DNA of 64,000 nt from Escherichia virus ESCO5 (taxonomy: Duplodnaviria; Heunggongvirae; Uroviricota; Caudoviricetes). Below are positions 44,089 to 60,112 of this stretch, piece after piece. The stretch lies in IMG/VR virus record IMGVR_UViG_2974610597_000001; one strand, given 5' to 3'. The stretch's first letter is position 1; every line of letters starts with the position of its first letter. Both the position numbers and the translations under genes were made by a program. The notes beneath the pieces are model-generated. The model searched no databases, was not told the origin of the DNA, and saw only the letters and a list, made by a program, of their open reading frames with translations.

Positions 44089-44367
44089 TTAAAATGGTTC
44101 GTTAGTCTCCATCATATATTCTGCTTCTAGTTCTTCCATGTGCTTTCTAAATTGGAAAGCAATTTCTGCTACAGTTACATTTAAATCTTTTTCAAAAACT
44201 TCTGTAGATCCTTCATAAAAACGAATACCGTCAATTAAAAGCCCTCCGTGGTAATCCCAATCGCTTTCACGAGAAAGTGGATTAGGTTCTTCATAATAGT
44301 AATCCACCTCCACAACCAAGGCTTTCCCGTTACGAGTGGTGTATTCAAAATCAAAAGTGTTAATCAT
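44089..44367 (-). CDS. hypothetical protein
   Basis: 92-aa ORF between primase-helicase and the glycosyltransferases. Confidence 0.4.
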   Translation of the reverse strand: MINTFDFEYTTRNGKALVVEVDYYYEEPNPLSRESDWDYHGGLLIDGIRFYEGSTEVFEKDLNVTVAEIAFQFRKHMEELEAEYMMETNEPF

Positions 44368-45311
44368 TATAGCTCCTCAAATAAAAGTCTACGACGCTCA
44401 TTCAACACATCAATGTGATAATGAGTCCTGACATACTTAGCTAATGCTAATCCTTTCTCCATGCAAACATCGGGAGCACTTAATAAGTATTCCGTAATAT
44501 CTTTCCACTCGGAAGGTGTTTCAGCAAAGAATAACAAATCTTTAAACTCTTGTGTATGATAATTCTCACGAGGAGAGCAGATTAAAGGTAAACCCTTAGC
44601 ACCTGCCTCAAGAATTTTAAGATTGCTTTTTGCATTATTAAACACGTTATCGATCAATGGTGCAAGACTGATTTGATGACCATCGTAAGATTCCATGTAG
44701 TAGGCATATGGTCTTACACCTTCATAAACACAAGTTGGTGCTACATTTTCCCTGATTAAAGACCATTCACGACTACTTAAAACTTCAGAATCCCTACGAA
44801 AACCACATATTGTAAGATCTTTACCAAAATCGGGCAAGATAGCCAAATCTTGTTTATGTGTTTCACTTCCAGCCCAGACTAATGGAGTTTTGGAGTAGCG
44901 ATCACGGGTCAACACAAATTGACCTTCATCGTAAGGAAGTCCATTAGGGATTATGTGCACATTATCATTGTATTGTGAAAGTTCAACTTGCAAGGCAGGT
45001 GTCGTAGTTGTAACAAGATCACTGTGCTCTAAAAACCATTTTAAATGTTCACGAATACCTGATTCAAAAATACCTTCTAACATGTGTCCTTTTGGAATAA
45101 CTAAAGAGTCATCCAAATCCATAACCATTTTAAAGCCCAGGTTTTTAAGGGCTAAAAAGCCCTCTTTACCTTTTGTTGGCACTCCGTTAAAAACGAAAAC
45201 GTTGTGTTTAGGTTGTGAAGAGAACTGCCTTGAGTAAGGCAGCACTACCCTATGGAAATCGCAGACACTATAATTGATTCCGTTACGATTGTCAAGAATT
45301 ATTTGTCCCAT
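44367..45311 (-). CDS. glycosyltransferase, GT-B-like (paralog 1)
   Basis: 314 aa; C-terminal NLKILEAGAKGLPLICS resembles the GT-B sugar-donor region; clearly paralogous to 45319..46305. Confidence 0.5.
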   Translation of the reverse strand: MGQIILDNRNGINYSVCDFHRVVLPYSRQFSSQPKHNVFVFNGVPTKGKEGFLALKNLGFKMVMDLDDSLVIPKGHMLEGIFESGIREHLKWFLEHSDLVTTTTPALQVELSQYNDNVHIIPNGLPYDEGQFVLTRDRYSKTPLVWAGSETHKQDLAILPDFGKDLTICGFRRDSEVLSSREWSLIRENVAPTCVYEGVRPYAYYMESYDGHQISLAPLIDNVFNNAKSNLKILEAGAKGLPLICSPRENYHTQEFKDLLFFAETPSEWKDITEYLLSAPDVCMEKGLALAKYVRTHYHIDVLNERRRLLFEEL

Positions 45312-45318
45312 ACTTCAC

Positions 45319-46305
45319 CTACAAACTTTCAATAACCTGGCGTCGCAATTCGTTTGCATCTGCCAGATTATAATGTGTTCGAACATGTTCCGCTAAGAAC
45401 AAGCCGCGATCTTCCCGATAGTTCGGATTGCGAAGAAGCTTAACAATTTCGTAATGCCATTCAGCTTTATTCTCTGCGTAAGCAACAGCGCGAGCATCTA
45501 CAGGGTTAAAATAAGGTAATACCTTAGAACAAACAATCGGAATACCTTTTGCCCCAGCTTCAAGGATTTTGAGATTACTTTTACAATTATTAAAATCATT
45601 GTCTACCAAAGGAGCTATAGCAATAGCATGACTTTCGTAAACACTCATGTAATTATCTAAATCTTTTACAGCAGCTTTATATTTGGCGTTTGGTAAATTT
45701 CTACGGATCTTAATCCACTCTTGCCCTGTGATACTCTGCGATGCTTCATATCCTGCAATAGTAAGAAGTTCATCATCGAAAGTATTAGAGACTAGTCGTA
45801 AATCGGGTTCGTGACTAGCACCGCCAGCCCATACAACAGGGGTACCGGATGAACGATCATTTGACAAAGTGAATTGTCCGCTATCAAAAGGAAGTGCATT
45901 TCGGATCACAACAACATTCCTATTTAAGTGACGGATCTTATATGCCAAATATTCCGTAGTCACAATGACCACATCGGCAAGCTTAACCATAGCTACAATA
46001 GCATGAGTGTTTGACTCATATAAACTTGCTAAATAATGTTCTGGATTAAGTTGGTAGAAATCATCTAAATCTACAACAATCTTAACACCTTGACGTTTCA
46101 GTGACAGAACATATTCTGCCCCTTTAGAATGAATACGGTTAAACACGACAACATCTTTCTTAGGCTGAAAATTATTGTTGTTAAATGGTATAACAATACG
46201 ATGATAATCACAACCACTGTGAGGTTTTGCATCAATTTTCAGTTTAGTCCATTTTTTATTTGACATGTGCCAGTGCCTCCTCATAAGAAATTCGGATTTT
46301 CCCAT
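45319..46305 (-). CDS. glycosyltransferase, GT-B-like (paralog 2)
   Basis: Shares CDYHRIV..., VVWAGGASHEPDL and NLKILEAGAKGIPIVCS with paralog 1; true start probably the internal Met near 46266. Confidence 0.5.
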   Translation of the reverse strand: MGKSEFLMRRHWHMSNKKWTKLKIDAKPHSGCDYHRIVIPFNNNNFQPKKDVVVFNRIHSKGAEYVLSLKRQGVKIVVDLDDFYQLNPEHYLASLYESNTHAIVAMVKLADVVIVTTEYLAYKIRHLNRNVVVIRNALPFDSGQFTLSNDRSSGTPVVWAGGASHEPDLRLVSNTFDDELLTIAGYEASQSITGQEWIKIRRNLPNAKYKAAVKDLDNYMSVYESHAIAIAPLVDNDFNNCKSNLKILEAGAKGIPIVCSKVLPYFNPVDARAVAYAENKAEWHYEIVKLLRNPNYREDRGLFLAEHVRTHYNLADANELRRQVIESL

Positions 46306-46939
46306 TTTTAATATCTTCTAAAGACGCTTTATATTCTTCCCAGTTAATGCCAATAGCAACTTCTTTCTCTTCTTTTGTCAGATTAGCAAAAGGCATAGGA
46401 TTGTTTCCAAAAACATCGTCTGGGTGGATATAAGCCATGATACGAAGTGGACAAGGTATTGCCTGAATGCCCTGATTCAAACCAGCAGCTTTCAAACGGT
46501 GTACCCATTCAGCATCTTCAAAACCATAGCCGTGAGTGTAAGGGCGGAAATAACCCATCTTCTCAACAACGGCACGAGAATACATTGCAAATTGACACAT
46601 TGCAAGTTCCCAGAGAATAACTTCTCCTTTACTCCCAACAACTTTATCTTTGAAATACTCCGGCATACCAAAGAAATCCCATCCTCCAGAGACAGCTTGA
46701 TCTACAAAATATGTTTCCCATCCCTCCATGATTGGGTAGCAATCGTCGTCAAAAATAAACCAATAATCATAACCTTCTTCATAAAACTGGTGCATAAGTT
46801 CATTCCTGGCGTAAGCTACACCTTTACGATCTGGATCGTTGAATACTCGAAAATCTGCATGTGGATCTGTTACAAGGTAGTCTTTAAGTGGACGGACACC
46901 TACAGTGATAACACCCACTCCGATTTTAATATTTTCCAT
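46256..46939 (-). CDS. glycosyltransferase, GT-A (family 2)-like
   Basis: 227 aa with DxD-type motif (IFDDDC) and GYGFEDAEW. Confidence 0.5.
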   Translation of the reverse strand: MENIKIGVGVITVGVRPLKDYLVTDPHADFRVFNDPDRKGVAYARNELMHQFYEEGYDYWFIFDDDCYPIMEGWETYFVDQAVSGGWDFFGMPEYFKDKVVGSKGEVILWELAMCQFAMYSRAVVEKMGYFRPYTHGYGFEDAEWVHRLKAAGLNQGIQAIPCPLRIMAYIHPDDVFGNNPMPFANLTKEEKEVAIGINWEEYKASLEDIKNGKIRISYEEALAHVK

Positions 46940-46947
46940 TTTCTCTC

Positions 46948-47511
46948 CTAAATAGTTTTACTGTGATCGTGACAGTGTAATAAATGATGTATAGACCGTT
47001 GAGGATTTGTTTGACCTAATCTGTAAATGTGAAACAGATACATTCCCCGCATCAATCCTAACCTCTTTCCTTTTTCATGTAAAGTGCGAGAGAAAATTAA
47101 GTCGAATTGGATAGATTTTTCTTCGAAAGGAATTTCATTCCACAATGATTTTCTAAAAAGCAAAAAGAAACCTGCCAGAGGTGTTCCGAAAGGAACTTCT
47201 TCAACACTCACTTTATGATATTCTCTTGCAATCTTAGCATATTCTATATGGTTTAGAATATCTGGATCATCGTTAATTTGGTTAGAGAAAAGCTGATAAC
47301 CACTACCTAACCTGTTACAAGTTGCACCTATTACATCAAAAGGCGGGTTTGACATAACAAGCTCTTCAAGCATAGATGGTTGATCAGGCAGGAGGAACAT
47401 TGTATCGGTATCTCTTAAGCACACCCAACTATCATCTGGAAGAACGGCAATAGCTTCATTGATAGCCTTGCCGATATTTCCTGTCAGATAGGGAGTAATA
47501 TAATAAATCAT
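46948..47511 (-). CDS. putative nucleotide-sugar transferase (GT-A-like)
   Basis: 187 aa with CLRDTDTMF; weak gestalt similarity. Confidence 0.35.
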   Translation of the reverse strand: MIYYITPYLTGNIGKAINEAIAVLPDDSWVCLRDTDTMFLLPDQPSMLEELVMSNPPFDVIGATCNRLGSGYQLFSNQINDDPDILNHIEYAKIAREYHKVSVEEVPFGTPLAGFFLLFRKSLWNEIPFEEKSIQFDLIFSRTLHEKGKRLGLMRGMYLFHIYRLGQTNPQRSIHHLLHCHDHSKTI

Positions 47512-48212: not shown

Positions 48213-48734
48213 TTAACTCCCCTTTGGTAGATAGAAACCATGCACTTTATCTCGATAAACAAGACGCATATCACGCTCCCAGTGTGTCCTTATATTCCGT
48301 TTCTTGAAGTATAGAGCACCTTTAGTAACATCTAAAACAGACCGCAATTCAGGAAAATGTTTCTCTAAATAAAGTAAACGCTCCGCTATTGCTTTTGCTT
48401 CCTGCCATTTATCTTTCTCTGTCACGTTAAAAGTTTTCGCATATGAGAATTGCCCTTTCTGGAACAAGACTCCCTTGACTGTGTTAGGGAAGTAGGCATC
48501 ATTTCTTCTGTTGATTACCACATTCCCAACGGCATTCATTCCTTTTTTACCCAGACCGCGACCTTCTGCGTAAATTGCACAAGCTAATAGAATTTTATCA
48601 TTATATTGCTTTGTACATTTGTGAACTACTTTAGCGGTTTTTACGTTTGCAGCTTCGGCTTTCGCCACAACAGGTGTAAATGTAAAAGCAGTTAAGGATA
48701 GTAACGCAACTGTTACAAAGTTTTTTATCAGCAA
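48213..48734 (-). CDS. secreted endolysin, SleB/CwlJ-type cell-wall hydrolase
   Basis: N-terminal signal peptide (ending AKAEA); hydrolase motif AIYAEGRGLGKKGMNAVGNVVINRRND...GQFS; TTG start after AGGAGG. Confidence 0.6.
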   Translation of the reverse strand: MLIKNFVTVALLSLTAFTFTPVVAKAEAANVKTAKVVHKCTKQYNDKILLACAIYAEGRGLGKKGMNAVGNVVINRRNDAYFPNTVKGVLFQKGQFSYAKTFNVTEKDKWQEAKAIAERLLYLEKHFPELRSVLDVTKGALYFKKRNIRTHWERDMRLVYRDKVHGFYLPKGS

Positions 48735-48830: not shown

Positions 48831-49433
48831 TTATGGACATTCATACCATTCTTTTTTACCACCGAAGGCCATTACCACATCGCAAATATCCAGACCAGCT
48901 TTACCTACACCATATGCTTTCAGCTTCCATTCTCCATCTTCACGAACCAGGGAAGCCACGTGGCAGATTGTGTTGCCAGCTACTTCAGGAGCCAGGAAGT
49001 CAAAATCCAGAATTTCCACATTACGCTCGGAGTCGAAGATTTTAAGCATACCTTCAGAAGCATGACCAAAACGTTTCAGACCTGTATCATCATCAATAGT
49101 CAGAACAAAGGCAATCTCTTGTGCATCAGGAGAGATTTTAGCCAGAGTAATATCAATCTGCTCCATGCTGCCAGTTCCATCACGAACATCGTCACCAGCA
49201 AAGGTAGAACGTTCAGGATCAAACTTATTAGCATAGCAAACCAGATGACGTGCAGACAGCATTTCAGGATTGCCAGCGGCATTGTGACGACAAACCAGTG
49301 CACTTACATCCAGATCCAGTTTAGAATCAGATTTCCAAGAGAACTCCAGGCGTAGTTCTTTCAGAGCCGGAGCAACTTTCTTCAGGGAAATTTTTTCGCT
49401 AGAGCCTTTTTTCAGGGAAATTTTATCAGTCAT
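48831..49433 (-). CDS. terD: TerD-family protein
   Basis: Duplicated ISLKK N-terminus, LDLDVSAL and GDDVRDGTG acidic loops, C-terminal EDGEWKLKAYG, matching E. coli TerD features (VSLSK, FDLDASAF, NGEWKFRAVG). Confidence 0.8.
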   Translation of the reverse strand: MTDKISLKKGSSEKISLKKVAPALKELRLEFSWKSDSKLDLDVSALVCRHNAAGNPEMLSARHLVCYANKFDPERSTFAGDDVRDGTGSMEQIDITLAKISPDAQEIAFVLTIDDDTGLKRFGHASEGMLKIFDSERNVEILDFDFLAPEVAGNTICHVASLVREDGEWKLKAYGVGKAGLDICDVVMAFGGKKEWYECP

Positions 49434-49448
49434 CTTTTGTCTCCTCTA

Positions 49449-49718
49449 TTATTTAAGTGTAATACCAGTTACAGTCAATTCTACTTCCAAAAGCTTAGAT
49501 GTGTTTTGGATTGATACTAATTGTGCATGATGGTTTAGTTCTACAGCAGAATAATCATTTTCCCCATCATCTACTTTTAAATAAACAATGATTTCACTAA
49601 GGTCTAAACCATTTTCGTCAAATGCATTTTCATAGACGAAAGTATCTCCTACATCCAAATCTTTAATGGTAAGGCATCGTTTATTTACTTTTTGCTCATC
49701 AATTTCGAAGTTTAACAC
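49449..49718 (-). CDS. hypothetical small protein (paralog A)
   Basis: 89 aa; shares DLDVGDTF..Y..A.DE.GLD and a C-terminal V.L.VT.ITLK with 50740..51018. Confidence 0.45.
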   Translation of the reverse strand: MLNFEIDEQKVNKRCLTIKDLDVGDTFVYENAFDENGLDLSEIIVYLKVDDGENDYSAVELNHHAQLVSIQNTSKLLEVELTVTGITLK

Positions 49719-49947
49719 TTCTTCCTCCTAATATTATCTCCGGTTTATATATACGAAGAATTATAGCATTTTCATTTTCTTTGTCAACCCATTCTTCATA
49801 ATCAGGCCATACATGAATCTCTACTCTACTTACAATATCTTCCATTCGCACAGTCCCAATGAAATACTCTTTGAGACTGCACATAATGAAAGCTTCTCTC
49901 TCGCGCCAATAATTTTCTATGACTTGAGAGGCAAGCTCGTCGATCAT
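49699..49947 (-). CDS. hypothetical protein
   Basis: 82-aa ORF. Confidence 0.4.
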   Translation of the reverse strand: MIDELASQVIENYWREREAFIMCSLKEYFIGTVRMEDIVSRVEIHVWPDYEEWVDKENENAIILRIYKPEIILGGRSVKLRN

Positions 49948-50738
49948 TTTTTAGCACCTACTTTAACAACCCACTCTCCGAACTCTTCAGATAAGAGTTT
50001 GTCATAAAGCTCTGAATCTGTCAAGTCTAAATCTTTAATGCCAATAAAACCAACATTATCATAAGCATTTGCCAGTTCTTTCAGGAAGCCAAACTTCTCA
50101 TTACCAACGCCAACCATGAACCAATAAATAGGTTTATTCTTATTCTCTTCAATAAGACGACGAACAGCACTAGGATCACCATTCTCACCATCCGTCTGGA
50201 AGAATACAACACCAGGGGTAACGTCAGCACCTGGTTCAGACACAGCTACAACCTTTTCACGCTCTACAGATACTGTTTCAGTTTTACCAAGCAGACGATT
50301 AAAGAAGCCTTTCTTTGGAGCCTCTTCTTGTACCACTTGTTTAGTGGTAATATATTTGGTAACAGTGCCAAAATACTCATCGTAGATATCTGCCATTACA
50401 GGGGCGTAATTTGTTCCACCTCCGATACGAACATTACGCATACATTTACCAACATAGTCATCGTAAACGTCTGCTGTTGCTGGAGTAAGCTCTTGGGAAC
50501 TCGTATTGAAGGCCCACATATCAATTTGTTGATTATCGTCGAACAGCATACCAAAAGGAAGCAGTTTACCTACAAAATCACTCACTACCCCACTAGAATA
50601 TAGACCATGCATACTACCAGAAATATCTAGAGCACATGCTACACGAAGAACAATCTTACCTTCATTCAGGTTCTTATTCTTTTTCAGAGAGAAAGCAAGG
50701 TTTTCTTGACGTTTTTTCAGGCTGATTTTATCGGACAT
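49944..50738 (-). CDS. von Willebrand factor A domain protein (TerY / TerF-vWA-like)
   Basis: MSDKISLKK N-terminus, then MIDAS motif DISGSM, GGGTNY and FQTDGENGD. Confidence 0.7.
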   Translation of the reverse strand: MSDKISLKKRQENLAFSLKKNKNLNEGKIVLRVACALDISGSMHGLYSSGVVSDFVGKLLPFGMLFDDNQQIDMWAFNTSSQELTPATADVYDDYVGKCMRNVRIGGGTNYAPVMADIYDEYFGTVTKYITTKQVVQEEAPKKGFFNRLLGKTETVSVEREKVVAVSEPGADVTPGVVFFQTDGENGDPSAVRRLIEENKNKPIYWFMVGVGNEKFGFLKELANAYDNVGFIGIKDLDLTDSELYDKLLSEEFGEWVVKVGAKK

Positions 50739-50739
50739 A

Positions 50740-51018
50740 TTATTTCTCCTTCTTAAGTGTAATGTTGGTAACTTCTAAATCTACTTCCACCATATTTGTA
50801 TCTGGCGGGATGCAATGAGTATAGCCTCGTTGTGCTAGTGATCCATTAATACAAATCGCACTGTTTGTGGAATTTTTAATGAACACCAAGTTACGGTAGG
50901 TATCCAACCCTGCGTCTTCATAGGCATCATAATACATGAATGTGTCCCCTACGTCAAGATCTTCGAAAGCAATAGGTAAATCCTGACCTTTTTCTTCTTG
51001 AATATTGAATCTAAACAC
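50740..51018 (-). CDS. hypothetical small protein (paralog B)
   Basis: Probable GTG start at 51018 after GAGGAGG; see paralog A. Confidence 0.4.
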   Translation of the reverse strand: MFRFNIQEEKGQDLPIAFEDLDVGDTFMYYDAYEDAGLDTYRNLVFIKNSTNSAICINGSLAQRGYTHCIPPDTNMVEVDLEVTNITLKKEK

Positions 51019-51574
51019 GCATACCTCCTCTACCAATTTTGAAGCCCAAATCGTAAGCTTCCTTAGTAATCTTTTGTAACTCACTTATAGGAAGTGTTAC
51101 AAGAGGATCATCTTCTTCAATTTCCATCTTGTCATCTTCTGTTTCAATGAGAGTATTATGCACTTTGTGATAAGGGTTGTCAACACGTTTAAACTTATTC
51201 TTTTCTGTGCTGAAAAAACAATCTGGATCTTCTTCACCATCACCCCAACCTTGATTAGGATCTCCGTCAGATTGTTCTGTAGGGATTTCACCTGTAAAGT
51301 ACTCTTCCAGCACCATAGCAATACCGTCCCTTGGATTTGAGGAATGCATTAAATCACAAACCTTACCCCAATCCATAGCCCATTCGAACCGTTCACGAAC
51401 GCCATTTTCATCCTCTTTTCCAGAGAAAACACAACCATAACTATCATAGTTGCCATACATCTCTTCAATAACAACACCGTCTTTCAAAAGAAAGAGGTAG
51501 CAAGGTGATCCGTCGAAAGAAGTAGAAAGGGCAGCTTTGCCCGATTCTTTGCACAAAAAACTAAAACAACCCAT
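51011..51574 (-). CDS. hypothetical acidic protein
   Basis: 187-aa ORF, Asp/Glu-rich. Confidence 0.45.
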   Translation of the reverse strand: MGCFSFLCKESGKAALSTSFDGSPCYLFLLKDGVVIEEMYGNYDSYGCVFSGKEDENGVRERFEWAMDWGKVCDLMHSSNPRDGIAMVLEEYFTGEIPTEQSDGDPNQGWGDGEEDPDCFFSTEKNKFKRVDNPYHKVHNTLIETEDDKMEIEEDDPLVTLPISELQKITKEAYDLGFKIGRGGMRV

Positions 51575-51777
51575 TACAAACCCTCCTTCAGATTATCAAG
51601 AGCTACAGTGGTTTCACAAAATTCTCCATAAGCTTTATGATGTTCCAGAAAAGCTTCGGGTCCACCCCAGTCATTATCTTGTGTATTCCAACCATCAATA
51701 AAAGCATCTTCAATGATTGTGATCAGTTCTTGTCGGGTTAACTGGATAATATTAGGATCGTTATCGTAGTTAAACAT
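51574..51777 (-). CDS. hypothetical protein
   Basis: 67-aa ORF; ATG overlaps the upstream stop. Confidence 0.4.
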   Translation of the reverse strand: MFNYDNDPNIIQLTRQELITIIEDAFIDGWNTQDNDWGGPEAFLEHHKAYGEFCETTVALDNLKEGL

Positions 51778-51938
51778 CTTCTTCCTCCTCTAAAATATGA
51801 AACCCGTAATTACAATAGTCCTGAAAGGTTTCGTGCGCAAGATCTTCTATATCCTCTTGAGACATATCATCTTCAATTTCGATATCCACAACCTCATTGC
51901 ATCCACACCAAGCAGTTTCAATATTCACTCGTAATATT
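51774..51938 (-). CDS. hypothetical small acidic protein (about 55 aa, not in the ORF track)
   Basis: ATG after AGGAGG; translation MKILRVNIETAWCGCNEVVDIEIEDD...EEEEDV; coupled start/stop overlaps on both sides. Confidence 0.3.
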
Positions 51939-51942
51939 TTCA

Positions 51943-52140
51943 TTACTCCTCCTCCTCATTGAAGTCAATATCTGCAAGGAGTTCGAATTTACGGAAGTTA
52001 CGACAACCTTCATAAATATAACAATCACGACAAACTGCTAGAACACTTGGGGGATATATGCCTCCCATCGGTGCGAATCGTTTTTCGTCATCATAACGGA
52101 CACCAATGTCTTCATCAATTATATAGATACGGATTCTCAT
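51943..52140 (-). CDS. hypothetical small protein
   Basis: 65 aa with CRDC...C and a C-terminal EEEE. Confidence 0.35.
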   Translation of the reverse strand: MRIRIYIIDEDIGVRYDDEKRFAPMGGIYPPSVLAVCRDCYIYEGCRNFRKFELLADIDFNEEEE

Positions 52141-53249
52141 TTACCAAGCCCTCGTTTCACAGCAGCTACCATCCCGTCTTCCAGAGATTGAACTTCATTA
52201 ATATAATCAACACGAGCAGCACGGGCTTCCGTATTGATGCGGTTAGTTTCTTCCAACATCTTAACCAAGTTTTCCTGATCGTGACGCAGAGTTTCAATAT
52301 CCAACACTTGACGGTTAGCCAGTGCTGCTGCTTCGATCTGATTCTGTGTGGCAAGATCGCTACCTAGTTTAATTGCCAGGTTAAATTCATCAAGAACGTT
52401 ATTCTGCGTCTCTGCTGCTTTCATTTGACGTAAGCTCTCGATATACATTGAGAAGTTAGCAGAGTAAGCAGGAATAACATTATTTACTATGTTACGCGCA
52501 GATCGCATTAAGCTTGCAGAAACTTTTTGCATACCTTGTACACGCGGTCCCATTTGGACACACAGTAGGCGCAACGCCTTTAAATCTGCAATACGAATCT
52601 CCAGGAGATCCAAAGTATCTCGGATCACTTGTCGCTGTTCTACGGCATCTTCTGGAAGAGCAGCCAAAGCTTGTTCTTCTTTTTCATAGGTTGCTGTTAG
52701 AAGCTGCATATCTCGGTTCAAACTTGCAGCATATTGTCCAATAGCTTGGTGTAGCTTTTCAAGATATACCAAGGAATCTTCTTCTTTGCGAATATCCATT
52801 TGAAGGTTCTTTACCAACTCTTCAATACGGTTATTAACATTATCAAACTCCCCAAACAGGTCTTCTTTCATACCCATAACTTTTTTAATGAGTTTAGTAA
52901 TACCCTTGCTTTGTTTAATAGAGTTTGGATCAAGTTGTTTTGCCTGTTTAATCAAGGCTGTGAGTCGTTCACTCATCTGATCGCCTTGATTACTACGTTG
53001 ATGTTTTAACACCTCGGCATTCAAGGAACGCAAGGTTGTTCCTGCCTCTGCCCCAATCTCTTCGATCTCTTGTCGGGTCATAGAAGGTAAAACTGGAACT
53101 TCTTGCGGTGCTGCTGGTGCATAAACAGGACTGGCATCTAACACACTTGGAGCAAATACAGATTTACTTGCATCTGTTGTTGCAGCGAATACACTCATTT
53201 CAGACTTCTTCTGACCACCAGTAGCTGCTTTTAAAAATGGACTTGTCAT
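52137..53249 (-). CDS. TelA-like helical protein
   Basis: 370 aa, predicted all-alpha coiled coil with a low-complexity N-terminus; size and composition fit the TelA/KlaA family; sits between the TerD/vWA genes and TerC. Confidence 0.45.
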   Translation of the reverse strand: MTSPFLKAATGGQKKSEMSVFAATTDASKSVFAPSVLDASPVYAPAAPQEVPVLPSMTRQEIEEIGAEAGTTLRSLNAEVLKHQRSNQGDQMSERLTALIKQAKQLDPNSIKQSKGITKLIKKVMGMKEDLFGEFDNVNNRIEELVKNLQMDIRKEEDSLVYLEKLHQAIGQYAASLNRDMQLLTATYEKEEQALAALPEDAVEQRQVIRDTLDLLEIRIADLKALRLLCVQMGPRVQGMQKVSASLMRSARNIVNNVIPAYSANFSMYIESLRQMKAAETQNNVLDEFNLAIKLGSDLATQNQIEAAALANRQVLDIETLRHDQENLVKMLEETNRINTEARAARVDYINEVQSLEDGMVAAVKRGLGK

Positions 53250-53836
53250 TCTTCATTCTCCTCTTCTGCATCTCTTATATATGGTGAAACACCGTACTCT
53301 TTAGCTACTTTAACCCAATCATCCCATTTATACAACCATAATTTTCCTTCAGTTCCTTCTTTATCTGATTTCAACCACATGTTAGGTTGCTTGCCTGGGT
53401 ACATGCGATTAGGTTTACGATTATAACCTCTAACACATCTTGTCGCAAACCTATCTACCAGAACAAGAACATATTTATATTCGTGGTTCAACGGCTCTTT
53501 GGAAGTGGCTTTAGGATTAGCTCCTAATTCTGCTGCCAGTTTTTGCCAATGAGCACCGTGTCTACTAAACTTACCCATACAACCATCAATAGCATGAGCA
53601 ATTTCGTGCTTCATTGTATCCACGATCATATCTCTTGTAGAGTTCTTATGCAAGTGCCAATTTACAACAACAATTTTATCTCGGTAGTTGCACCAACCGA
53701 AAGAGTTATTAACTTTGTTTCTAACACAAGCTTTATATCCTGCTTCACGTAACATGTTGTAGTAAACAGGAAAATCTTCTTTTATTTCCTGCATCACTTC
53801 CCACCACAAGAGTTGCAAGTCTCTCTCGGTATGCAT
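53246..53836 (-). CDS. SprT-like zinc metallopeptidase
   Basis: HEIAHAI (HExxH) and a downstream His/Cys-rich segment (GCMGKFSRHGAHW). Confidence 0.45.
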   Translation of the reverse strand: MHTERDLQLLWWEVMQEIKEDFPVYYNMLREAGYKACVRNKVNNSFGWCNYRDKIVVVNWHLHKNSTRDMIVDTMKHEIAHAIDGCMGKFSRHGAHWQKLAAELGANPKATSKEPLNHEYKYVLVLVDRFATRCVRGYNRKPNRMYPGKQPNMWLKSDKEGTEGKLWLYKWDDWVKVAKEYGVSPYIRDAEEENEE

Positions 53837-53839
53837 AAC

Positions 53840-54433
53840 TTACACCTTAAAAGCGAAATGCGTGGTCGTGGCTTCAAAATCAGGGCCAGATAAACTTGCA
53901 CTGAAATCTGAAATATTTGTAATTAAAAAGCTTTTATGCATACCTAACACAGCCACGCTTTCAATATCTTCTACTAACATTTCAATCATGTTAGAAACAT
54001 GGCTGAACGTAGAGTTTTGTTTTTTGATGGTGTAGAAAGAAAGATTCCCACCTGCTATATAAGACACCTCTTCAAAATCTTTAATCGTATATTGTGTGCC
54101 ATCAGTAAAGAAAATGGTAGCTTTATTAGTAGCACGTTTCTTGTTTTTTGGTCCTTTTTTACGTTTACTGCGAGTAGGCAAACCGTTTGGAAATACCGTA
54201 GCTACAAATTCTTCAGGAGAAACCTCCTTACCGAAATCATAACCGTAAGAAACAGCGTCTATAAACTCGTCGTCTTCATTTTTAAAATAATGAAAATAGG
54301 GCCAATTTGAGAGATTATCGAGCATCTTATGCTCATCCACAGCAGAGAACGTATCCCTCAAAGCACGTGTGATTTGCAAAGCATTAGGCAAACTTTTAAC
54401 ACCTGTAATGGAAGTACGAATAGAAATTGTCAT
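53840..54433 (-). CDS. hypothetical protein
   Basis: 197 aa with a basic patch (RSKRKKGPKNKKR). Confidence 0.4.
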   Translation of the reverse strand: MTISIRTSITGVKSLPNALQITRALRDTFSAVDEHKMLDNLSNWPYFHYFKNEDDEFIDAVSYGYDFGKEVSPEEFVATVFPNGLPTRSKRKKGPKNKKRATNKATIFFTDGTQYTIKDFEEVSYIAGGNLSFYTIKKQNSTFSHVSNMIEMLVEDIESVAVLGMHKSFLITNISDFSASLSGPDFEATTTHFAFKV

Positions 54434-54447
54434 TGTTTTTCTCCTTA

Positions 54448-54885
54448 TTAACGTCGCTTGCTACGAGATGAACTCTTTTTACTTAAAGGACTATTGTAAG
54501 ATTTACGAGTTGTATAGCTACTATTTGTTTTAAAAGTTTGTCTCGGCTTTTCATAAGTTTTTATCTCTTGTTTAGGCTTACTATAAAAATTAGTTTTCGG
54601 TTTAGGTGTATTATAATGCTTATTAATAATCGTTCTGTTATCGTTATAATCCCCACTGCTACGATTACTACCGCCACTCATCATATGCCCTAACAACATA
54701 CCTGTAGCAAACTCACCAACACCGCTACTACTAGAACCGCCACCATTGTTGATAATAGTTGTATCTCCGTCAGATCCTTGTTGAGCGTATTGTTGAGGAG
54801 GTTGTTGGTATTGTGCAGGATTTGTTTCATCCTCGCAAGCTGTTAAAAAGATACAACCAATTAAAATCAGGGCTAGTTTTTTCAT
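54448..54885 (-). CDS. lipoprotein
   Basis: Start at internal Met: MKKLALILIGCIFLTAC with lipobox LTAC; mature part rich in Gln/Pro/Gly/Ser/Asn/Lys. Confidence 0.6.
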   Translation of the reverse strand: MKKLALILIGCIFLTACEDETNPAQYQQPPQQYAQQGSDGDTTIINNGGGSSSSGVGEFATGMLLGHMMSGGSNRSSGDYNDNRTIINKHYNTPKPKTNFYSKPKQEIKTYEKPRQTFKTNSSYTTRKSYNSPLSKKSSSRSKRR

Positions 54886-55068
54886 ATTTGCTTTCCTCGT
54901 TTTGGCTATTAATACATCTGTGTTTGAAATCTCCAGAGAAGCAATAAAGTTGCTCTCCATCTCGGTATAAACTCACTTTACTGCCGTTGATTACGCTTGT
55001 CAATACAAAAATTACAACAAACAACCCTATTGCAAAACAAATATTTTCAAACACAACCAACAAGTATT

Positions 55069-55419
55069 TCATTTTAAAAATACCTCATCATCAGTTTCAT
55101 TATCCCAGAAGAACAAGTCCCAACCATTCGGATCATTCCATTTAGCTGCTGGAGAAGTCCATATTTGCTCGATATCAATATTCAAAACTTCACCGTTTCG
55201 TTTTGAAACAGCTTTAGTTAATTCCCAACGGGATACAGGCTCCACTTCCCCTGAACCACTCCCACAACAAGCTACCACATTAGGAGGCAAATTAATTGGA
55301 TCTTTGGTCACAATCATAACGCTTACCCCAGGGTAAACTTTTGAAAGATAATCTAAAACGTAATCCACATCACCAGATAAATCCCAAACAAGTTCTTGAA
55401 TTTCATCAAAATTATTCAT
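55069..55419 (-). CDS. hypothetical protein
   Basis: 116-aa ORF downstream of TerC. Confidence 0.4.
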   Translation of the reverse strand: MNNFDEIQELVWDLSGDVDYVLDYLSKVYPGVSVMIVTKDPINLPPNVVACCGSGSGEVEPVSRWELTKAVSKRNGEVLNIDIEQIWTSPAAKWNDPNGWDLFFWDNETDDEVFLK

Positions 55420-55437
55420 AAGTCTCTCCTATAAAAT

Positions 55438-55455
55438 AGCCTCCCGAAGGAGGCT
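55438..55455 (-). terminator. hairpin terminator after terC
   Basis: On the - strand AGCCTCC, TTCG loop, GGAGGCT, then ATTTTAT. Confidence 0.45.
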
Positions 55456-55461
55456 CATCTA

Positions 55462-56535
55462 TTAAACAGCAGCTTCTTCTTTTTCAGGGAAGATAAAGCT
55501 TGCAATAACACCAAGAGATAATGTGCCTAGAACAATCATCAGACTTACGTTAGGGGAAATATCATGCGGGAGGAATGACCACTTGGCATGAAGTGTTTCA
55601 CCGAACGGGTGATACATAAGTTTAGCACCAACAAACACCAGAACCACAGCAACAGCTTTCTCTAAGTGAACCAGATATTTCACAGCTACACTTAACACAA
55701 AGAAAAGTGCACGTAAACCAAGAACAGCCATCAGCATTGCAGAATAAACTAGCAGAGGTTCTTGTGTCACACCGATTACAGCCGGAACTGAATCAAAAGA
55801 GAAGACAATATCTGTAAGCTCAATAACAAACACACAAAGAAGAGCAGGAGTTGCATATTTAATACCATTCTTAATGGTAATGAACTTTTCACCATCTAGT
55901 GCATTGTGCACAGGCAGAACTTTACCTACTAAACGAACAGCCCAATGCTTAGAGTAATCAATATCCTCTTCTTCGTCACCACCTTTGATGATAGCCACGG
56001 CAGACCAAGCTACAATCAAACCGAACAACACTTGGACCGACCAATGAAGGTTAAACAAAGCGGTCCCTGCTGCAACAAAAATACCTCGGAAGACAATGGC
56101 TCCTGCAATCCCCCAAAGTAAAATCTTATGTTGAAGATGTGTGCTCTTAATTCCAAAGCTTGCAAAAATTGCCATGAATACCATCAGGTTATCTACAGAA
56201 AGACTCTTTTCCAACACATAGCCACTTAGGAAAAGCGCGGCAAACTCTTTACCATGTTCTACCCAAATGAATGCGTAATATCCTAAAGCTAAAGCAATCC
56301 AAAAAACAGACCAAAGCAAAGCAGATTTAATTCCAATTTCTTTATTTTTACCATGTTCTACCCAAATGAATGCGTAATATCCTAAAGCTAAAGCAATCCA
56401 AAAAACAGACCAAAGCAAAGCAGATTTAATTCCAATTTCTTTATTCTCTTTATGACCAAAGAAATCGATACCAATAGACAATGCCAAAATACCAACTAAA
56501 ACAACTACATCAATAATTGGGAAACCGAGTTGCAT
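55462..56535 (-). CDS. terC: TerC-family integral membrane protein
   Basis: Multi-pass membrane protein with LEKSLSVDN and TDIVFSFDSVPAV motifs; contains an internal exact 33-aa duplication. Confidence 0.8.
   Translation of the reverse strand: MQLGFPIIDVVVLVGILALSIGIDFFGHKENKEIGIKSALLWSVFWIALALGYYAFIWVEHGKNKEIGIKSALLWSVFWIALALGYYAFIWVEHGKEFAALFLSGYVLEKSLSVDNLMVFMAIFASFGIKSTHLQHKILLWGIAGAIVFRGIFVAAGTALFNLHWSVQVLFGLIVAWSAVAIIKGGDEEEDIDYSKHWAVRLVGKVLPVHNALDGEKFITIKNGIKYATPALLCVFVIELTDIVFSFDSVPAVIGVTQEPLLVYSAMLMAVLGLRALFFVLSVAVKYLVHLEKAVAVVLVFVGAKLMYHPFGETLHAKWSFLPHDISPNVSLMIVLGTLSLGVIASFIFPEKEEAAV
56248..56445. repeat. perfect 99-bp tandem duplication (2 copies) inside terC
   Basis: 56248-56346 is identical to 56347-56445; in frame; CTCTTTA occurs at both 56245-56251 and 56446-56452. 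Confidence 0.95.
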
Positions 56536-56616
56536 TCTTTTCTCCTCTCTTTGCGGGGAACTATTCCCCGCTTCATTTGATATATATCTTACTCTTTTTA
56601 AGAACTATGTCAACAC

Positions 56617-56838
56617 TTATTTTGTTGAATGAGAGGAAAAGATTCCTCGTAATACCGCCAGAATAAACGAAACACAAACCACGGTCCAGAAGGTTACTGG
56701 GACAGTGATATCTGCATGACCCATAACTTCAGCAACATAGTTGTAAGCCAGCAACAGTAACCAAGCTGGAATCAAACTAAGCATAAAAGCAATAACAAAA
56801 AAGCTTACCACCGCAATAATACCTGCAAAAACACCCAT
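56617..56838 (-). CDS. small two-TM membrane protein
   Basis: 73 aa with two hydrophobic helices. Confidence 0.45.
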   Translation of the reverse strand: MGVFAGIIAVVSFFVIAFMLSLIPAWLLLLAYNYVAEVMGHADITVPVTFWTVVCVSFILAVLRGIFSSHSTK

Positions 56839-56850
56839 ACTAATCTCCTC

Positions 56851-57324
56851 TTAAAGTTTATAAATAGTCACATCGTGACCTGTTTTTACTAAAGTTTCTT
56901 CAATCATCACTTGGATGATAGCCCAATTACCTCCAGCATATCCAGCGCCAATCATAGGTAAGCCGATCTTACATTTTTGGTCACGGAGAAGCACATCATT
57001 AGCCATAGCTATTAGTGCATCGTAAAGTGCATCATAGTCCAACTGACGACCTTTAGCATTGTATCCGTAACGGTATTGCCCGTATAGATTATATACCAAA
57101 GGGTCTGATTGTTCGTCTGGCACCCCTAAACTAAAAGAACCTAACTTACTTTGATCACCAGCCATTGTGTCTAAATCTGCCGCATATGCATAAGGGAATG
57201 CTCGTTTAATTTGCGGAGCAATTCCTGCCCCCATATTACACATACAATTGCAACAATGAGCAATAACAGTTACTTCACCTGCTTTAGCGGCATCAATAAG
57301 ATTACCTGTTTTCATTTTAAGCAT
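56851..57324 (-). CDS. macrodomain protein (OARD1/TARG1-like ADP-ribose hydrolase)
   Basis: Start at internal ATG after AAGGAG; VIAHCCNCMCNMGAGIAPQIKRAF resembles the TARG1 motif [24 protein letters not shown]. Confidence 0.55.
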   Translation of the reverse strand: MLKMKTGNLIDAAKAGEVTVIAHCCNCMCNMGAGIAPQIKRAFPYAYAADLDTMAGDQSKLGSFSLGVPDEQSDPLVYNLYGQYRYGYNAKGRQLDYDALYDALIAMANDVLLRDQKCKIGLPMIGAGYAGGNWAIIQVMIEETLVKTGHDVTIYKL

Positions 57325-57337
57325 TTTTAGCTCCTTA

Positions 57338-58165
57338 TTACAGAATGTGTTGTTTTGTGTAACGATCCAAGAATTCAAAGTTTTCAGCATACTTTGAAAT
57401 TCGGTTGTAACCTTCTCCCAAACATCCGAAGAAAAGTTGCTCTACATAGTAGTGTGGCAATTGGCTAAGAATGATTTTGAAGTCTTCGTGATTTTGGCCC
57501 ATAAGATACTTAATAGGACGAACAAGACACTGTGCATCACGTTCTTCATTAATCATTTTAACAAACGCTTCTGGTGTATTGATATAGTTAAAATTCAGTT
57601 TAGCTTCAGTATCTGCTTGATTACCTTCATATTTTGCAAAATACAAGAAGTAAACATCATTTTTAACTTGATTTTCATCAAGAATCTCAATCAGTTTGTC
57701 TTCATGAGTTCCGGTGATATTTACATCATCAATGAACACAAGCTTCTTATCACCCCAGAATTCTTTGTTGCAGTAGAATGTATCCCCATCAATAAGTTTC
57801 TTACGACTAGCTTTATCCAAGAAACCATAATCGTTGATATAGCTAACTTTACGATGAATAATATCCAGTTCTGCTGAACGACCTTGATCATATTGTGCTT
57901 GCAACATATTAAAGTAATTAATAAAATGATCTGTCATCATTGTTGCAGCATTGTGCACATGGTTATAAGGAGAAGGGATGATAACAAATTGTTCCCCAAT
58001 ATGTTTCATTGCCACTTGAGCAAAAAACTGAAGTACCAATTCTTTACCCATACGACGCGCAGCTTGGTTACTACCAAATTTCAATTTTGAATAGTCTTTG
58101 ATATCAAAAGTAGCAGTTTCCAGGTCATCAAATTTATTTGCAAAAATTTGAGTTTGATTACGCAT
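57338..58165 (-). CDS. phosphoribosyltransferase (type I PRTase) domain protein
   Basis: PRPP-binding signature KLVFIDDVNITGTHE; RBS GAGGAG. Confidence 0.6.
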   Translation of the reverse strand: MRNQTQIFANKFDDLETATFDIKDYSKLKFGSNQAARRMGKELVLQFFAQVAMKHIGEQFVIIPSPYNHVHNAATMMTDHFINYFNMLQAQYDQGRSAELDIIHRKVSYINDYGFLDKASRKKLIDGDTFYCNKEFWGDKKLVFIDDVNITGTHEDKLIEILDENQVKNDVYFLYFAKYEGNQADTEAKLNFNYINTPEAFVKMINEERDAQCLVRPIKYLMGQNHEDFKIILSQLPHYYVEQLFFGCLGEGYNRISKYAENFEFLDRYTKQHIL

Positions 58166-58814
58166 TTACAATTTCTCCTCTTTTAAGTTTCTCTAGTAAG
58201 TCGTTAGGGTTCTTAATATGACAGAAGTTAATCCCTATGTCAACACATTTACCATCAAATTCTTCGCTGTCCCCAACATGTAAAATCTCTTCAGCCTTCA
58301 AAGGAATGCTTGAATATGTGGCGGTCCTAACAAAGAATCTAGGATCTGGTTTACATAACAGATGTTCGTCTGAAAAATGCATAAATTCAAAACAATTCCA
58401 ACTGTCGAACATACAAGCACGACGCAAAATATCCCCAGATATAAAATTAGTATTGCTTTTAATACTAAGATCATATTTACCAGACAAGTATAGCAAACAA
58501 ACTGGCAAATCTAAAGCGATATGTGGAGGAAATTTAAGAAACCATTGCTCACAATCAAAACGCATTTGTGCAGATTCTACAGGGGTTAAACCTATCTTTC
58601 TTCCCAACATATTCCATGCATATGCTACACCTTCTGCACACCCATTTAGTGCAGCATTATCCATAATTTCTTTGGCATCTTTATATGCTTCTTTTGCCGC
58701 ACGTTCAGACATTCTACCATATGTAGCAATAGTGTGCGTACGTGCATCTGCATAGTTTTGATTGGCAGAAATAAGAGTATTCCATACATCAAAAGAAATA
58801 TGTTTTATTGTCAT
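58158..58814 (-). CDS. HAD-superfamily phosphatase-like protein
   Basis: N-terminal ISFDVWNTL (motif I-like), LSIKSNT, C-terminal HVGDSEEFD; start moved to internal ATG at 58814. Confidence 0.5.
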   Translation of the reverse strand: MTIKHISFDVWNTLISANQNYADARTHTIATYGRMSERAAKEAYKDAKEIMDNAALNGCAEGVAYAWNMLGRKIGLTPVESAQMRFDCEQWFLKFPPHIALDLPVCLLYLSGKYDLSIKSNTNFISGDILRRACMFDSWNCFEFMHFSDEHLLCKPDPRFFVRTATYSSIPLKAEEILHVGDSEEFDGKCVDIGINFCHIKNPNDLLEKLKRGEIVNA

Positions 58815-58815
58815 A

Positions 58816-59421
58816 CTAGGCCCACCACGCATCAAGATTTAAGTTACTGTCTACCACAACTTGTTCTATGTGGTAGCCTTTTATCTGTATCCCACTGTTC
58901 AAGAGCATATCATATGCTTCATTGAAACGCAACTTATCTTCTGCGGAATATAAGCGAGCATTGTAAAATCGGTAATCAAGTTCTTCAGCATTAGAAGAAA
59001 TACGGAAGAAGTTTGTTTCTACTTCAGGATCACTTGCTGAAGTTTTAATGTGAACTTCTCCGTAATTTTCTTTGCTTAGATCCATGAAAAGAACACAGGC
59101 AACATGTTTAAACATTCGTTCCAGTTTGTAACGAACAACATTGAAACCTGCGTTCTCAAGTTTTTCTACACATTGCAACATTAACGTAGTGTCGAGATCG
59201 CTTTGATACTTTGTTAACATACGATCACGTTGAGACTTTGTATCCCGATGTAAATCAATTGTTGTGCATTTGGCACCAATGATCTTAGCTGCTTTCATCA
59301 ACTCTTCAGAACTAACGTTAGATAAAGTAAGATGAAAATGGGCTTTCCACACTTTTTTAGCAGGGACACCAAAAGATTTATCCCCACTATTCGGCATGTT
59401 GACTACTACACTATGTTGCAT
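58816..59421 (-). CDS. hypothetical protein
   Basis: 201 aa, ATG after GAGGAG. Confidence 0.45.
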   Translation of the reverse strand: MQHSVVVNMPNSGDKSFGVPAKKVWKAHFHLTLSNVSSEELMKAAKIIGAKCTTIDLHRDTKSQRDRMLTKYQSDLDTTLMLQCVEKLENAGFNVVRYKLERMFKHVACVLFMDLSKENYGEVHIKTSASDPEVETNFFRISSNAEELDYRFYNARLYSAEDKLRFNEAYDMLLNSGIQIKGYHIEQVVVDSNLNLDAWWA

Positions 59422-59436
59422 TACTTATCTCCTCAC

Positions 59437-59628
59437 TTAAAATGGAAGTCTTTGAAGTTCATCTCCTCCGATATCAAGTAATTTAGCAACATCTCGATCA
59501 GAAAGCAACTCTTTTCTTTGTAAAATATCCACAAGGGTTGCAAGAATGTCCTTAACGTCCCGATCACTGTTCTTCAAAAGTTCTCCTGCCGTCCCTACCC
59601 TATCTCCTACAGCAAAATATGTAACCAT
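59437..59628 (-). CDS. hypothetical small protein
   Basis: Start at ATG 59628 after TAGGAGG. Confidence 0.35.
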   Translation of the reverse strand: MVTYFAVGDRVGTAGELLKNSDRDVKDILATLVDILQRKELLSDRDVAKLLDIGGDELQRLPF

Positions 59629-59641
59629 AAAACCTCCTACG

Positions 59642-60112
59642 CTAATCTGATTGCCAACCACTCGCCGTTTTGGTCCATAATCTTTGATTATCTGACCCTC
59701 TGAAAGGTTTTGTGGTTGGATTGTTTATTTCATACTTTCCGTCTACAATAATGTCAACAAGATTTTTAATATACAAAGGCACTTCCTCAAAAGTATATCC
59801 TGTATACACCATTATATCTTTGCTTGACCCATAAACGTCTCTAACCTTTTCTATAAGGTTTTTAACATTGTAAATATTCTGCGGATCTAATGGTTCTCCT
59901 CCTAAAATTGTTAAACCTTTTACAAACGGTCTTGACAAATCTTTTAAAACTTGCTCTACATTTTCGTTAGTGAACGGTTTCCCATAAGAATAAGACCAGG
60001 CTTTCTGGTTAAAACAGCCACGACAACCGTGGCTACAACCACTAACCCAGAGGGAGCACCTAACTCCCTCACCATTAATAAGATCTACAGGTTCATATCC
60101 TGCAAAATTCAA
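59642..60112 (-). CDS. nrdG: anaerobic ribonucleotide reductase activating protein (radical SAM)
   Basis: CSHGCRGC motif; 156 aa; immediately downstream of nrdD with overlapping stop/start. Confidence 0.85.
   Translation of the reverse strand: MNFAGYEPVDLINGEGVRCSLWVSGCSHGCRGCFNQKAWSYSYGKPFTNENVEQVLKDLSRPFVKGLTILGGEPLDPQNIYNVKNLIEKVRDVYGSSKDIMVYTGYTFEEVPLYIKNLVDIIVDGKYEINNPTTKPFRGSDNQRLWTKTASGWQSD

Follow-up and report, generated by a model that had tools for sequence, protein, structure and literature searches.

The Ter core hub, as defined by Anantharaman, Iyer and Aravind (2012) and summarised in PMC7824862, is composed of TerC, TerD, TelA and a vWA protein of the TerF/TerY type, and TerB is a frequent but not universal companion. 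The bacterial ter operon has been linked to phage inhibition and to resistance against pore-forming colicins (Whelan 1995, as cited in PMC8386662), and deletion of terC in Klebsiella lowers resistance to phage, Zn, Mn and Te (PMC12054061). Abbreviated phage Ter operons were described in the jumbo-phage review of Iyer et al. (2021) for Pseudomonas Otagovirus and Caulobacter Bertelyvirus (PMC7824862). The ZCKP1 paper reported 'four genes related to tellurite resistance' and suggested colicin resistance and prevention of superinfection (PMC6141743), 'alx-like ter cluster genes' are cited as known for phi92, and the phiKp34 paper lists the same gene set along with earlier reports in virulent phages (PMC8386662). 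A reading of phage Ter systems as superinfection exclusion has already been proposed (PMC7824862, PMC6141743). The present analysis concerns the Ter gene block of Escherichia virus ESCO5 (Phapecoctavirus, Stephanstirmvirinae), contained in a stretch of 64,000 nucleotides that is referred to as the window and to which coordinates refer unless another record is named. From approximately 36 kb onward the coding strand of the window is the minus strand, and judged by its predicted protein families the block there has all four defining components of the hub: TerC, TerD, TelA and a vWA protein. Tentatively, and at somewhat less than an even chance, it is interpreted here as a phage-borne abbreviated Ter module in which a metal-dependent complex, anchored on TerC at the inner membrane, would make an infected cell less vulnerable to competing phages and to toxins that form pores.

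Identification of the core genes

Protein families were assigned using the curated gathering scores of Pfam as the cut-off, and all four core open reading frames (ORFs) scored well above it (Table 1). These genes had been named in an earlier sequence-only reading of the window, which also pointed to the ISLKK N-terminus of the vWA protein; its gene boundaries and the common strand proved exact, and each assignment was borne out by the profiles, so that a chance pattern can be dismissed. In ESCO5 the quartet is spread over approximately 8 kb, with some 12 other ORFs in between.

TerC contains multiple hydrophobic segments and also matches the NCBIfam Alx subfamily TIGR03718 ('TerC/Alx family metal homeostasis membrane protein') with 335 bits against a cut-off of 246. 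TerD aligns with Klebsiella TerD (PDB 2kxt, 1.5e-15) and retains the motif DLDxSA as DLDVSA; at the position of the acidic loop GDNxTGEGDGDDE it reads GDDVRDGTGSME, where Klebsiella has GDNRTGEGDGDDE, and which residues of this loop bind Ca2+ is an assumption on our part. In phage PaulScherrer, a member of the BASEL collection, TerD is 81% identical and has this degenerate loop as well. In the vWA protein the residues of the metal ion-dependent adhesion site (MIDAS), DISGS...GGGTN...TDG (DxSxS, T, D), were read from the sequence as intact, and DxSxS is likewise retained in the vWA orthologues of the Ter operons of the Psa phages and the Caulobacter phages. TelA begins with a disordered stretch of approximately 55 residues, and its AlphaFold2 (AF2) model consists of long helical hairpins with a mean predicted local distance difference test score (pLDDT) of 71; no solved relative was detected by sequence search, and a fold search with the model gave no convincing structural neighbour. 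TerB had no match among the 20 ORFs between 48.2 and 60.1 kb that were scanned with Pfam, a set that excludes the three smallest ORFs (51574-52140) and ORF 59437-59661.

Table 1. Genes and sequence signals in and around the Ter block of the ESCO5 window, in order of position
Feature	Position	Strand	Evidence	Predicted status or context
SleB-like cell-wall hydrolase (Hydrolase_2)	48213-48734	minus	Pfam 2e-17; N-terminal signal peptide (hydrophobic N-terminus)	
TerD-domain protein, 200 aa	48831-49433	minus	PF02342 3.2e-28, 98.9 bits vs cut-off 25.3	core
Small protein, phrog_11278	49449-49718	minus		after vWA
vWA-TerF-like protein, 264 aa	49944-50738	minus	PF10138 1.6e-37; ISLKK-type N-terminus	core
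Small protein, phrog_11278 paralogue	50740-51084	minus		before vWA, between TelA and vWA
Conserved 187-aa protein	51011-51574	minus	PHROGs match	between TelA and vWA
TelA-family helical protein, 370 aa	52137-53249	minus	PF05816 3.2e-33, 115.7 bits vs cut-off 30	core
SprT-like zinc metallopeptidase-fold protein	53246-53836	minus	PF10263 4.2e-9	accessory
Q/S/G-rich lipoprotein	54448-54885	minus	lipobox LTAC, read by eye	
Small protein, N-terminal transmembrane segment	54827-55072	minus		overlaps lipoprotein gene
Terminator-like hairpin AGCCTCCTTCGGGAGGCT, then ATTTTAT	55438-55455	minus		directly after terC stop
TerC-family integral membrane protein, 357-aa ORF in window	55462-56535	minus	PF03741 4e-40	core
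Perfect in-frame tandem duplication, 2 x 99 bp	56248-56445	minus	Tandem Repeats Finder (TRF), 100% matches	inside terC
Sigma-70-like promoter TTGACA-16-TAAGAT, then GC-rich hairpin in 5' untranslated region (UTR) and strong Shine-Dalgarno	56553-56613	minus		upstream of terC
73-aa membrane protein, two hydrophobic segments	56617-56838	minus	phrog_16065	directly upstream of terC
Macro-domain protein, TARG1/DarG-like, predicted ADP-ribosyl hydrolase	56851-57390	minus	Pfam Macro 1.5e-4, right at cut-off	accessory
PRTase_3 (ComF-like phosphoribosyltransferase)	57338-58165	minus	PF15610 2.7e-41; phosphoribosyl pyrophosphate (PRPP)-binding loop VFIDDVNITGT	accessory
HAD-superfamily hydrolase (REG-2-like)	58158-58835	minus	weak Pfam and NCBIfam HAD matches	accessory, PRTase_3 partner
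gp186, 201 aa	58816-59421	minus	invariant HxHxT and ExHxK; tandem ferredoxin-like predicted fold, pLDDT 82	

Conservation, distribution and origin

The Ter block, taken as 12 kb, belongs to the gene core of the subfamily that contains phAPEC8 and phi92 (Stephanstirmvirinae), with 62 phage records covering at least 80% of it and a further 67 matching at 60-80% identity. Within the genus, TelA identity is 99-100%; between the genus and Justusliebigvirus, to which PaulScherrer belongs, it is 79%, and the corresponding values are 81% for TerD and 64% for the phosphoribosyltransferase (PRTase). The gene order in PaulScherrer is NrdG, AAA ATPase, HAD, PRTase, macro, TerC, a lipoprotein-like gene and TelA, continuing with the 187-aa protein, a phrog_11278 member, vWA, TerD, an extra ORF and the SleB-like hydrolase. 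In metagenomic phage contigs with a TelA only 47-49% identical the order TerC..TelA..vWA-TerD-Hydrolase_2 is kept, and glycosyltransferases, primase-helicase and DNA polymerase follow downstream. These distant contigs all keep TerC, TelA, vWA and TerD, and the conserved core is therefore taken to be this quartet, with SprT, macro, PRTase and HAD as accessory genes. A Band_7 (SPFH/stomatin-like) membrane-scaffold gene was observed between TerC and TelA in contig L009 (4332-5213).

In the synteny comparison with related phages that the sequence-only reading had suggested, the order was kept in the sister genus and in metagenomic relatives, but the novelty it implied did not hold: the cluster is already known in this phage group, where the block is ubiquitous, and has been annotated and discussed. 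Several related records carry the annotations TelA-like, TerC, TerD family, VWA domain-containing, tellurite resistance, macro domain and phosphoribosyltransferase, and the functional ideas put forward in that reading restate published proposals for phage Ter clusters (PMC6141743, PMC7824862).

Among all phage records compared, TelA was present in 223 of 50,697. The terC gene had no blastn match in 5,426 E. coli genomes, TerD shares approximately 31% identity with its counterparts on enterobacterial plasmids, and none of the enterobacterial ter plasmids examined matched the PRTase. The nearest plasmid-borne TerD (36%) is from Photobacterium, where it lies within a bacterial cluster that has two genes each for TelA and TerD. 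Given the missing E. coli match for terC and the low identity to plasmid proteins, the phage Ter genes are old and divergent rather than recently captured from a host.

Phage TerC proteins that are identical or nearly so have been deposited as 'Escherichia coli' on contigs of approximately 150 kb, which means that some E. coli assemblies include complete genomes of these phages, owing either to contamination or to a carrier state. Phage-length contigs of this kind, together with the mention by Iyer et al. of possible xenobiotic resistance during pseudolysogeny (PMC7824862), would fit passenger genes that have no role in the lytic cycle and give the host tellurite or xenobiotic resistance in carrier states. 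We regard this explanation as highly improbable, since sequence and gene order are strongly conserved across genera, down to 47% identity, and the set recurs independently in virulent phages of other hosts. A practical consequence concerns phage therapy: candidate genomes carry the label 'tellurite resistance' for these genes, and it denotes a family with a putative function.

Signals flanking terC and the duplication within it

The arrangement of promoter, hairpin and Shine-Dalgarno sequence before terC was also found in PaulScherrer (L002, 13045-13125) and in the metagenomic contig L010 (5805-5895), and the 5' UTR hairpins of these three diverged lineages differ in sequence with pairing retained. 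All promoter calls are consensus matches and denote predicted sites only. The predicted terC promoter lies near 56613-56586. Another site, on the minus strand at 49760-49787, agrees with the sigma-70 consensus at 12 of 12 positions and has an extended -10 (TTGACA-16-TGnTATAAT); it falls inside ORF 49699-49947 and just upstream of the small ORF 49449-49718 and terD.

The 12-kb block of the window is 100% identical to ESCO5 KX664695.3 / NC_047776.2 with the exception of one 99-bp copy of the repeat inside terC, which is absent from NC_047776.2. The duplication repeats one transmembrane helix (33 aa) and makes the terC ORF of the window 99 bp longer than that of the current database record; TerC has 324 aa in that record and in more than 70 relatives, and the 357-aa form is otherwise found only as an old UniRef entry (A0A1D8EQC2) without a supporting contig. 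Because the repeat is absent from the current record and the relatives, and the longer form has no contig, a faulty assembly in an earlier version of the record is its most likely source.

The Mn2+ riboswitch yybP-ykoY had no Rfam match at the gathering score anywhere in the window, and within 56450-56900 the terC leader had no Rfam match at E<=1, a short hairpin being its only structure. This result bears on a reading of the block as a metal homeostasis system, in which a TerC/Alx protein either exports Mn2+ (Zn2+ and Ca2+ being further candidates) or delivers metal to proteins destined for export, with TerD and vWA as sensors or buffers, and in which cytoplasmic metal is kept right for phage enzymes and rivals are not excluded. 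The curated Alx-subfamily assignment of TerC, the Zn and Mn resistance due to Klebsiella TerC (PMC12054061), the description of B. subtilis TerC proteins as metal chaperones in the title of PMC12096827, the retention of the MIDAS site and of part of the TerD Ca2+ motif, and the ribonucleotide reductase genes that adjoin the Ter block all fit such a system. Bacterial relatives, however, have the Mn riboswitch that is missing before the phage terC, the host already possesses its own Alx, and a single exporter needs no TelA, vWA or TerD, yet the quartet has been kept in three phage lineages; metal homeostasis is considered a somewhat unlikely explanation.

Proposed role of the core genes

The interpretation given at the outset, protection of the infected cell by a membrane complex, would operate as follows. 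TerC, an Alx-type metal-transporting membrane protein, would be made from its own host-type promoter and inserted into the inner membrane, where we infer that TelA with its helical hairpins, vWA with its MIDAS site and TerD, a beta-sandwich with a partly degenerate Ca2+ loop, assemble on it. The three proteins would form a metal-dependent layer under the membrane early in infection, and the complex would condition the cell envelope during infection, making it resistant to further membrane insults, chiefly the injection of DNA by competing phages and the action of pore-forming colicins. The HAD-PRTase_3-macro genes upstream of terC would be an optional add-on, which probably makes or processes a ribose-phosphate or nucleoside-like small molecule. 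Protection against phages and colicins is transferred from the phenotypes that plasmid ter operons give to bacteria.

Several observations count in its support. Family membership is established for all four proteins by the Pfam cut-offs; the block is conserved in about 130 related phage records; its gene order persists at a TelA identity of 47-49%, and the same quartet occurs in unrelated Pseudomonas and Caulobacter phages; and promoter-like sites, with the 5' hairpin and Shine-Dalgarno sequence, precede terC in three lineages. The phenotypes of the bacterial ter operon and of Klebsiella terC, and the published proposals for phage Ter systems, are also in its favour. Complex formation, the time of expression and the exclusion function are inferred.

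Several points weigh on the other side. A literature search found no experiment on any phage-encoded Ter gene, and the effect of Klebsiella terC on phage is modest, being confined to plaque size and late growth (PMC12054061). The phage set has neither the TerB nor the multiple TerD paralogues of the operons in which phage inhibition was measured, three acidic residues are replaced in the acidic Ca2+ loop of its TerD, and its TerC is of the Alx type, for which the best-known role is metal export and not exclusion. The promoter scan as a whole was also not enriched, with 45 sites against 38.9 expected from shuffled sequences.

The role of Ter and TelA proteins is a decades-old question, for which virulent phages with a minimal four-gene version offer a simple genetic handle. 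ESCO5, ZCKP1 and PaulScherrer can be cultured on E. coli and are tractable for tests of exclusion, metal handling and membrane protection.

Genes upstream of terC

The sequence-only reading gave the span of the quartet correctly but drew the block too short, as it missed the HAD, PRTase_3 and macro genes directly upstream. All three are present in PaulScherrer. For contigs L009 and L010 the genes that precede TerC have no recorded Pfam family, and PRTase_3, HAD and macro do not show up there; the trio is accordingly viewed as accessory and, from its pattern of occurrence, apparently separable from the core quartet.

The macro protein also matches NCBIfam DarG (1.7e-8), PADLOC DarG (3e-10), PDB 5e3b (5.6e-13) and the DarG structure 5m31 (3.5e-6), and it could counter DarT-type ADP-ribosylation of DNA. 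In the 157 phage records with PRTase_3, and likewise in rhizobial plasmids, the gene always adjoins a HAD gene. When six homologues of the HAD protein from phages and a plasmid were aligned, D16-V-W-N-T20, K162-P163 and G188-D189 proved invariant. In canonical HAD phosphatases the second Asp of motif I (Asp+2) is the general acid/base. Motif I of this family reads DVWNT, with Trp at the position of Asp+2, both on a Sinorhizobium plasmid and in phages from four host genera (the window, L002 and L004-L007), and for that reason a phosphatase label for the protein is an assumption.

The PRTase and HAD enzymes of Ter systems have been assigned to a 'signal biosynthesis' arm that makes a signalling nucleoside (PMC7824862). 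No ATP-grasp or TIM-barrel partner of this biosynthetic arm was found. The HAD gene lies directly upstream of PRTase_3 with no Ter genes nearby in Xanthomonas, Rhizobium and Brevundimonas phages, and on the Sinorhizobium plasmid the pair stands beside glycosyltransferase, radical SAM, epimerase, SMR transporter and UbiA prenyltransferase genes. The pair may have its place in the chemistry of ribose or glycans and not in Ter signalling.

Next to the trio, gp186 matches PADLOC 'AbiEi' at 5e-13 but no Pfam family, and a fold search with its AF2 model gave no convincing structural neighbour. Phage contig L015 (110 kb) has a 36%-identical homologue, immediately followed downstream by the anti-CBASS gene Acb1 (CBASS, cyclic oligonucleotide-based antiphage signalling system) and near a NADAR gene, and gp186 may be a new anti-defence gene.

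These genes bear on the possibility that the block serves counter-defence, either because the complex steadies the membrane against depolarising abortive-infection (Abi) effectors of the host or because the trio handles a nucleotide signal or ADP-ribose and so blunts immunity. The macro domain is closest to those of DarG antitoxins, the gp186 family has the neighbours just described in another phage, and the published view of a nucleoside signal made by Ter PRTase and HAD enzymes (PMC7824862) points in the same direction. PRTase, HAD and macro nevertheless appear to be missing upstream of TerC in relatives that keep the core quartet, other phages have the HAD-PRTase pair on its own, as do rhizobial plasmids, where glycan-synthesis genes adjoin it, and PADLOC matches were limited to DarG and 'AbiEi'. 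On balance we judge counter-defence to be unlikely.

Interleaved genes and the neighbouring hydrolase

Between the core genes, the sequence-only reading had noted small ORFs, an SprT-like protease and a lipoprotein, and both of the latter were recovered, by a Pfam profile and a lipobox, respectively. The SprT-like gene is found in contigs L010 and L011; it had no Pfam match among the PaulScherrer genes scanned between TerC and TelA and is not on record in L009. The two phrog_11278 paralogues match PHROGs at 7e-45 and 8e-50 and have the motif LDVGDTF in common, and PaulScherrer keeps equal-sized ORFs at the position of 50740-51084 and 51011-51574. A pair of overlapping genes similar to that at 54448-55072 likewise occurs in PaulScherrer, and the layout of this membrane-protein/lipoprotein pair is reminiscent of a spanin pair. 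In PHROGs, neither this pair nor the membrane protein at 56617-56838 is annotated as a lysis gene, holin or spanin.

The SleB-like hydrolase was described in the sequence-only reading as the endolysin next to the Ter genes. The adjacency of a SleB-like Hydrolase_2 gene is real, the hydrolase following TerD directly in ESCO5 and in L009-L011, but the functional link is weaker than was supposed. The hydrolase has its own promoter-like site after a hairpin, the ESCO5 record NC_047776.2 contains a second 'putative lysozyme' at 29570-30070, and the adjacency is confined to this lineage, with no SleB-like hydrolase after TerD in the Psa and Caulobacter phage Ter operons and one extra ORF separating the two genes in PaulScherrer. 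The gene is best treated as a neighbour of the Ter block, and whether it is 'the endolysin' is not certain.

The same facts limit an account in which the Ter proteins, together with the hydrolase and the small membrane and lipoprotein genes, would time or restrain cell-wall breakdown. Its attraction is that a hydrolase with a signal peptide adjoins TerD and that the block is interspersed with a membrane protein of two hydrophobic segments and with the overlapping genes for a membrane protein and a lipoprotein. With the adjacency lineage-bound and interrupted in PaulScherrer, a separate promoter-like site, another lysozyme gene in the genome and small proteins without holin or spanin annotation in PHROGs, such control of the envelope or of lysis timing is improbable.

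Slightly less improbable, although still quite unlikely, is a second membrane-centred alternative, in which the quartet would not be an exclusion device but would be installed by the phage to preserve the integrity and energisation of the inner membrane during infection. It would shield the cell against depolarising host Abi effectors and would keep the exported SleB-like hydrolase of the phage itself from doing damage too early, and the system would be tuned by a ligand derived from ribose phosphate, which the optional HAD(DVWNT)-PRTase_3-macro cassette would provide or take away. If true, Ter would be a general anti-Abi 'membrane armour' of phages and plasmids. The TerC-anchored complex directed against competing phages and pore-forming toxins is retained as the preferred interpretation.

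Farther from the core genes, four glycosyltransferase genes lie just downstream of the Ter block (44367-47511), and between 17518 and 33771 NC_047776.2 has genes for Sir2, a DprA-like protein, a NinI-like phosphatase and an HslV-family peptidase, as well as a set for dTDP-rhamnose synthesis.

Comparison with known Ter systems

The closest described systems are those of the phAPEC8-like and phi92-like phages (ZCKP1, phi92, vKMB37 and PaulScherrer), which have the same Ter cluster genes and differ from ESCO5 in nothing essential. ZCKP1 is 98.4% identical over the 12-kb block. PaulScherrer has other genes where ESCO5 has the SprT-like gene and gp186, and beyond the ESCO5 set it has an AAA ATPase gene and the extra ORF before the hydrolase. 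The Otagovirus phages of Pseudomonas (phiPsa267) and the Bertelyvirus jumbo phages of Caulobacter encode the same four families on one strand in a compact operon, TelA-vWA-TerC-TerD, in which the four genes are contiguous and in an order unlike that of ESCO5, with a TelA that is 22-25% identical to the ESCO5 protein.

The comparison with bacterial ter/telA loci drawn in the sequence-only reading was correct. The enterobacterial terZABCDEF operon (R478, Klebsiella virulence plasmids, E. coli O157) has the TerC and TerD families in common with the phage, but it carries five TerD paralogues and TerB, whereas the phage has one TerD, no TerB, and TelA instead. Identity with this operon was rejected on account of the single TerD, the lack of TerB and the distance between the sequences. 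The TerY-P defence triad (vWA, PP2C phosphatase and kinase) was rejected as well, as PADLOC gave no match for the vWA protein or its neighbours. In record LR746137 a relative of the phage TerD bears the annotation yceD. The bacterial set that we take to be closest in composition to that of the phage is the envelope-stress operon yceCDEFGH of Bacillus subtilis, which presumably encodes TerD-family proteins, a TerC-family protein and TelA (YceH) and likewise has no TerB. As we understand it, that operon differs from the phage quartet in having three TerD paralogues and no vWA protein, and in belonging to a chromosomal regulon under stress sigma factors.

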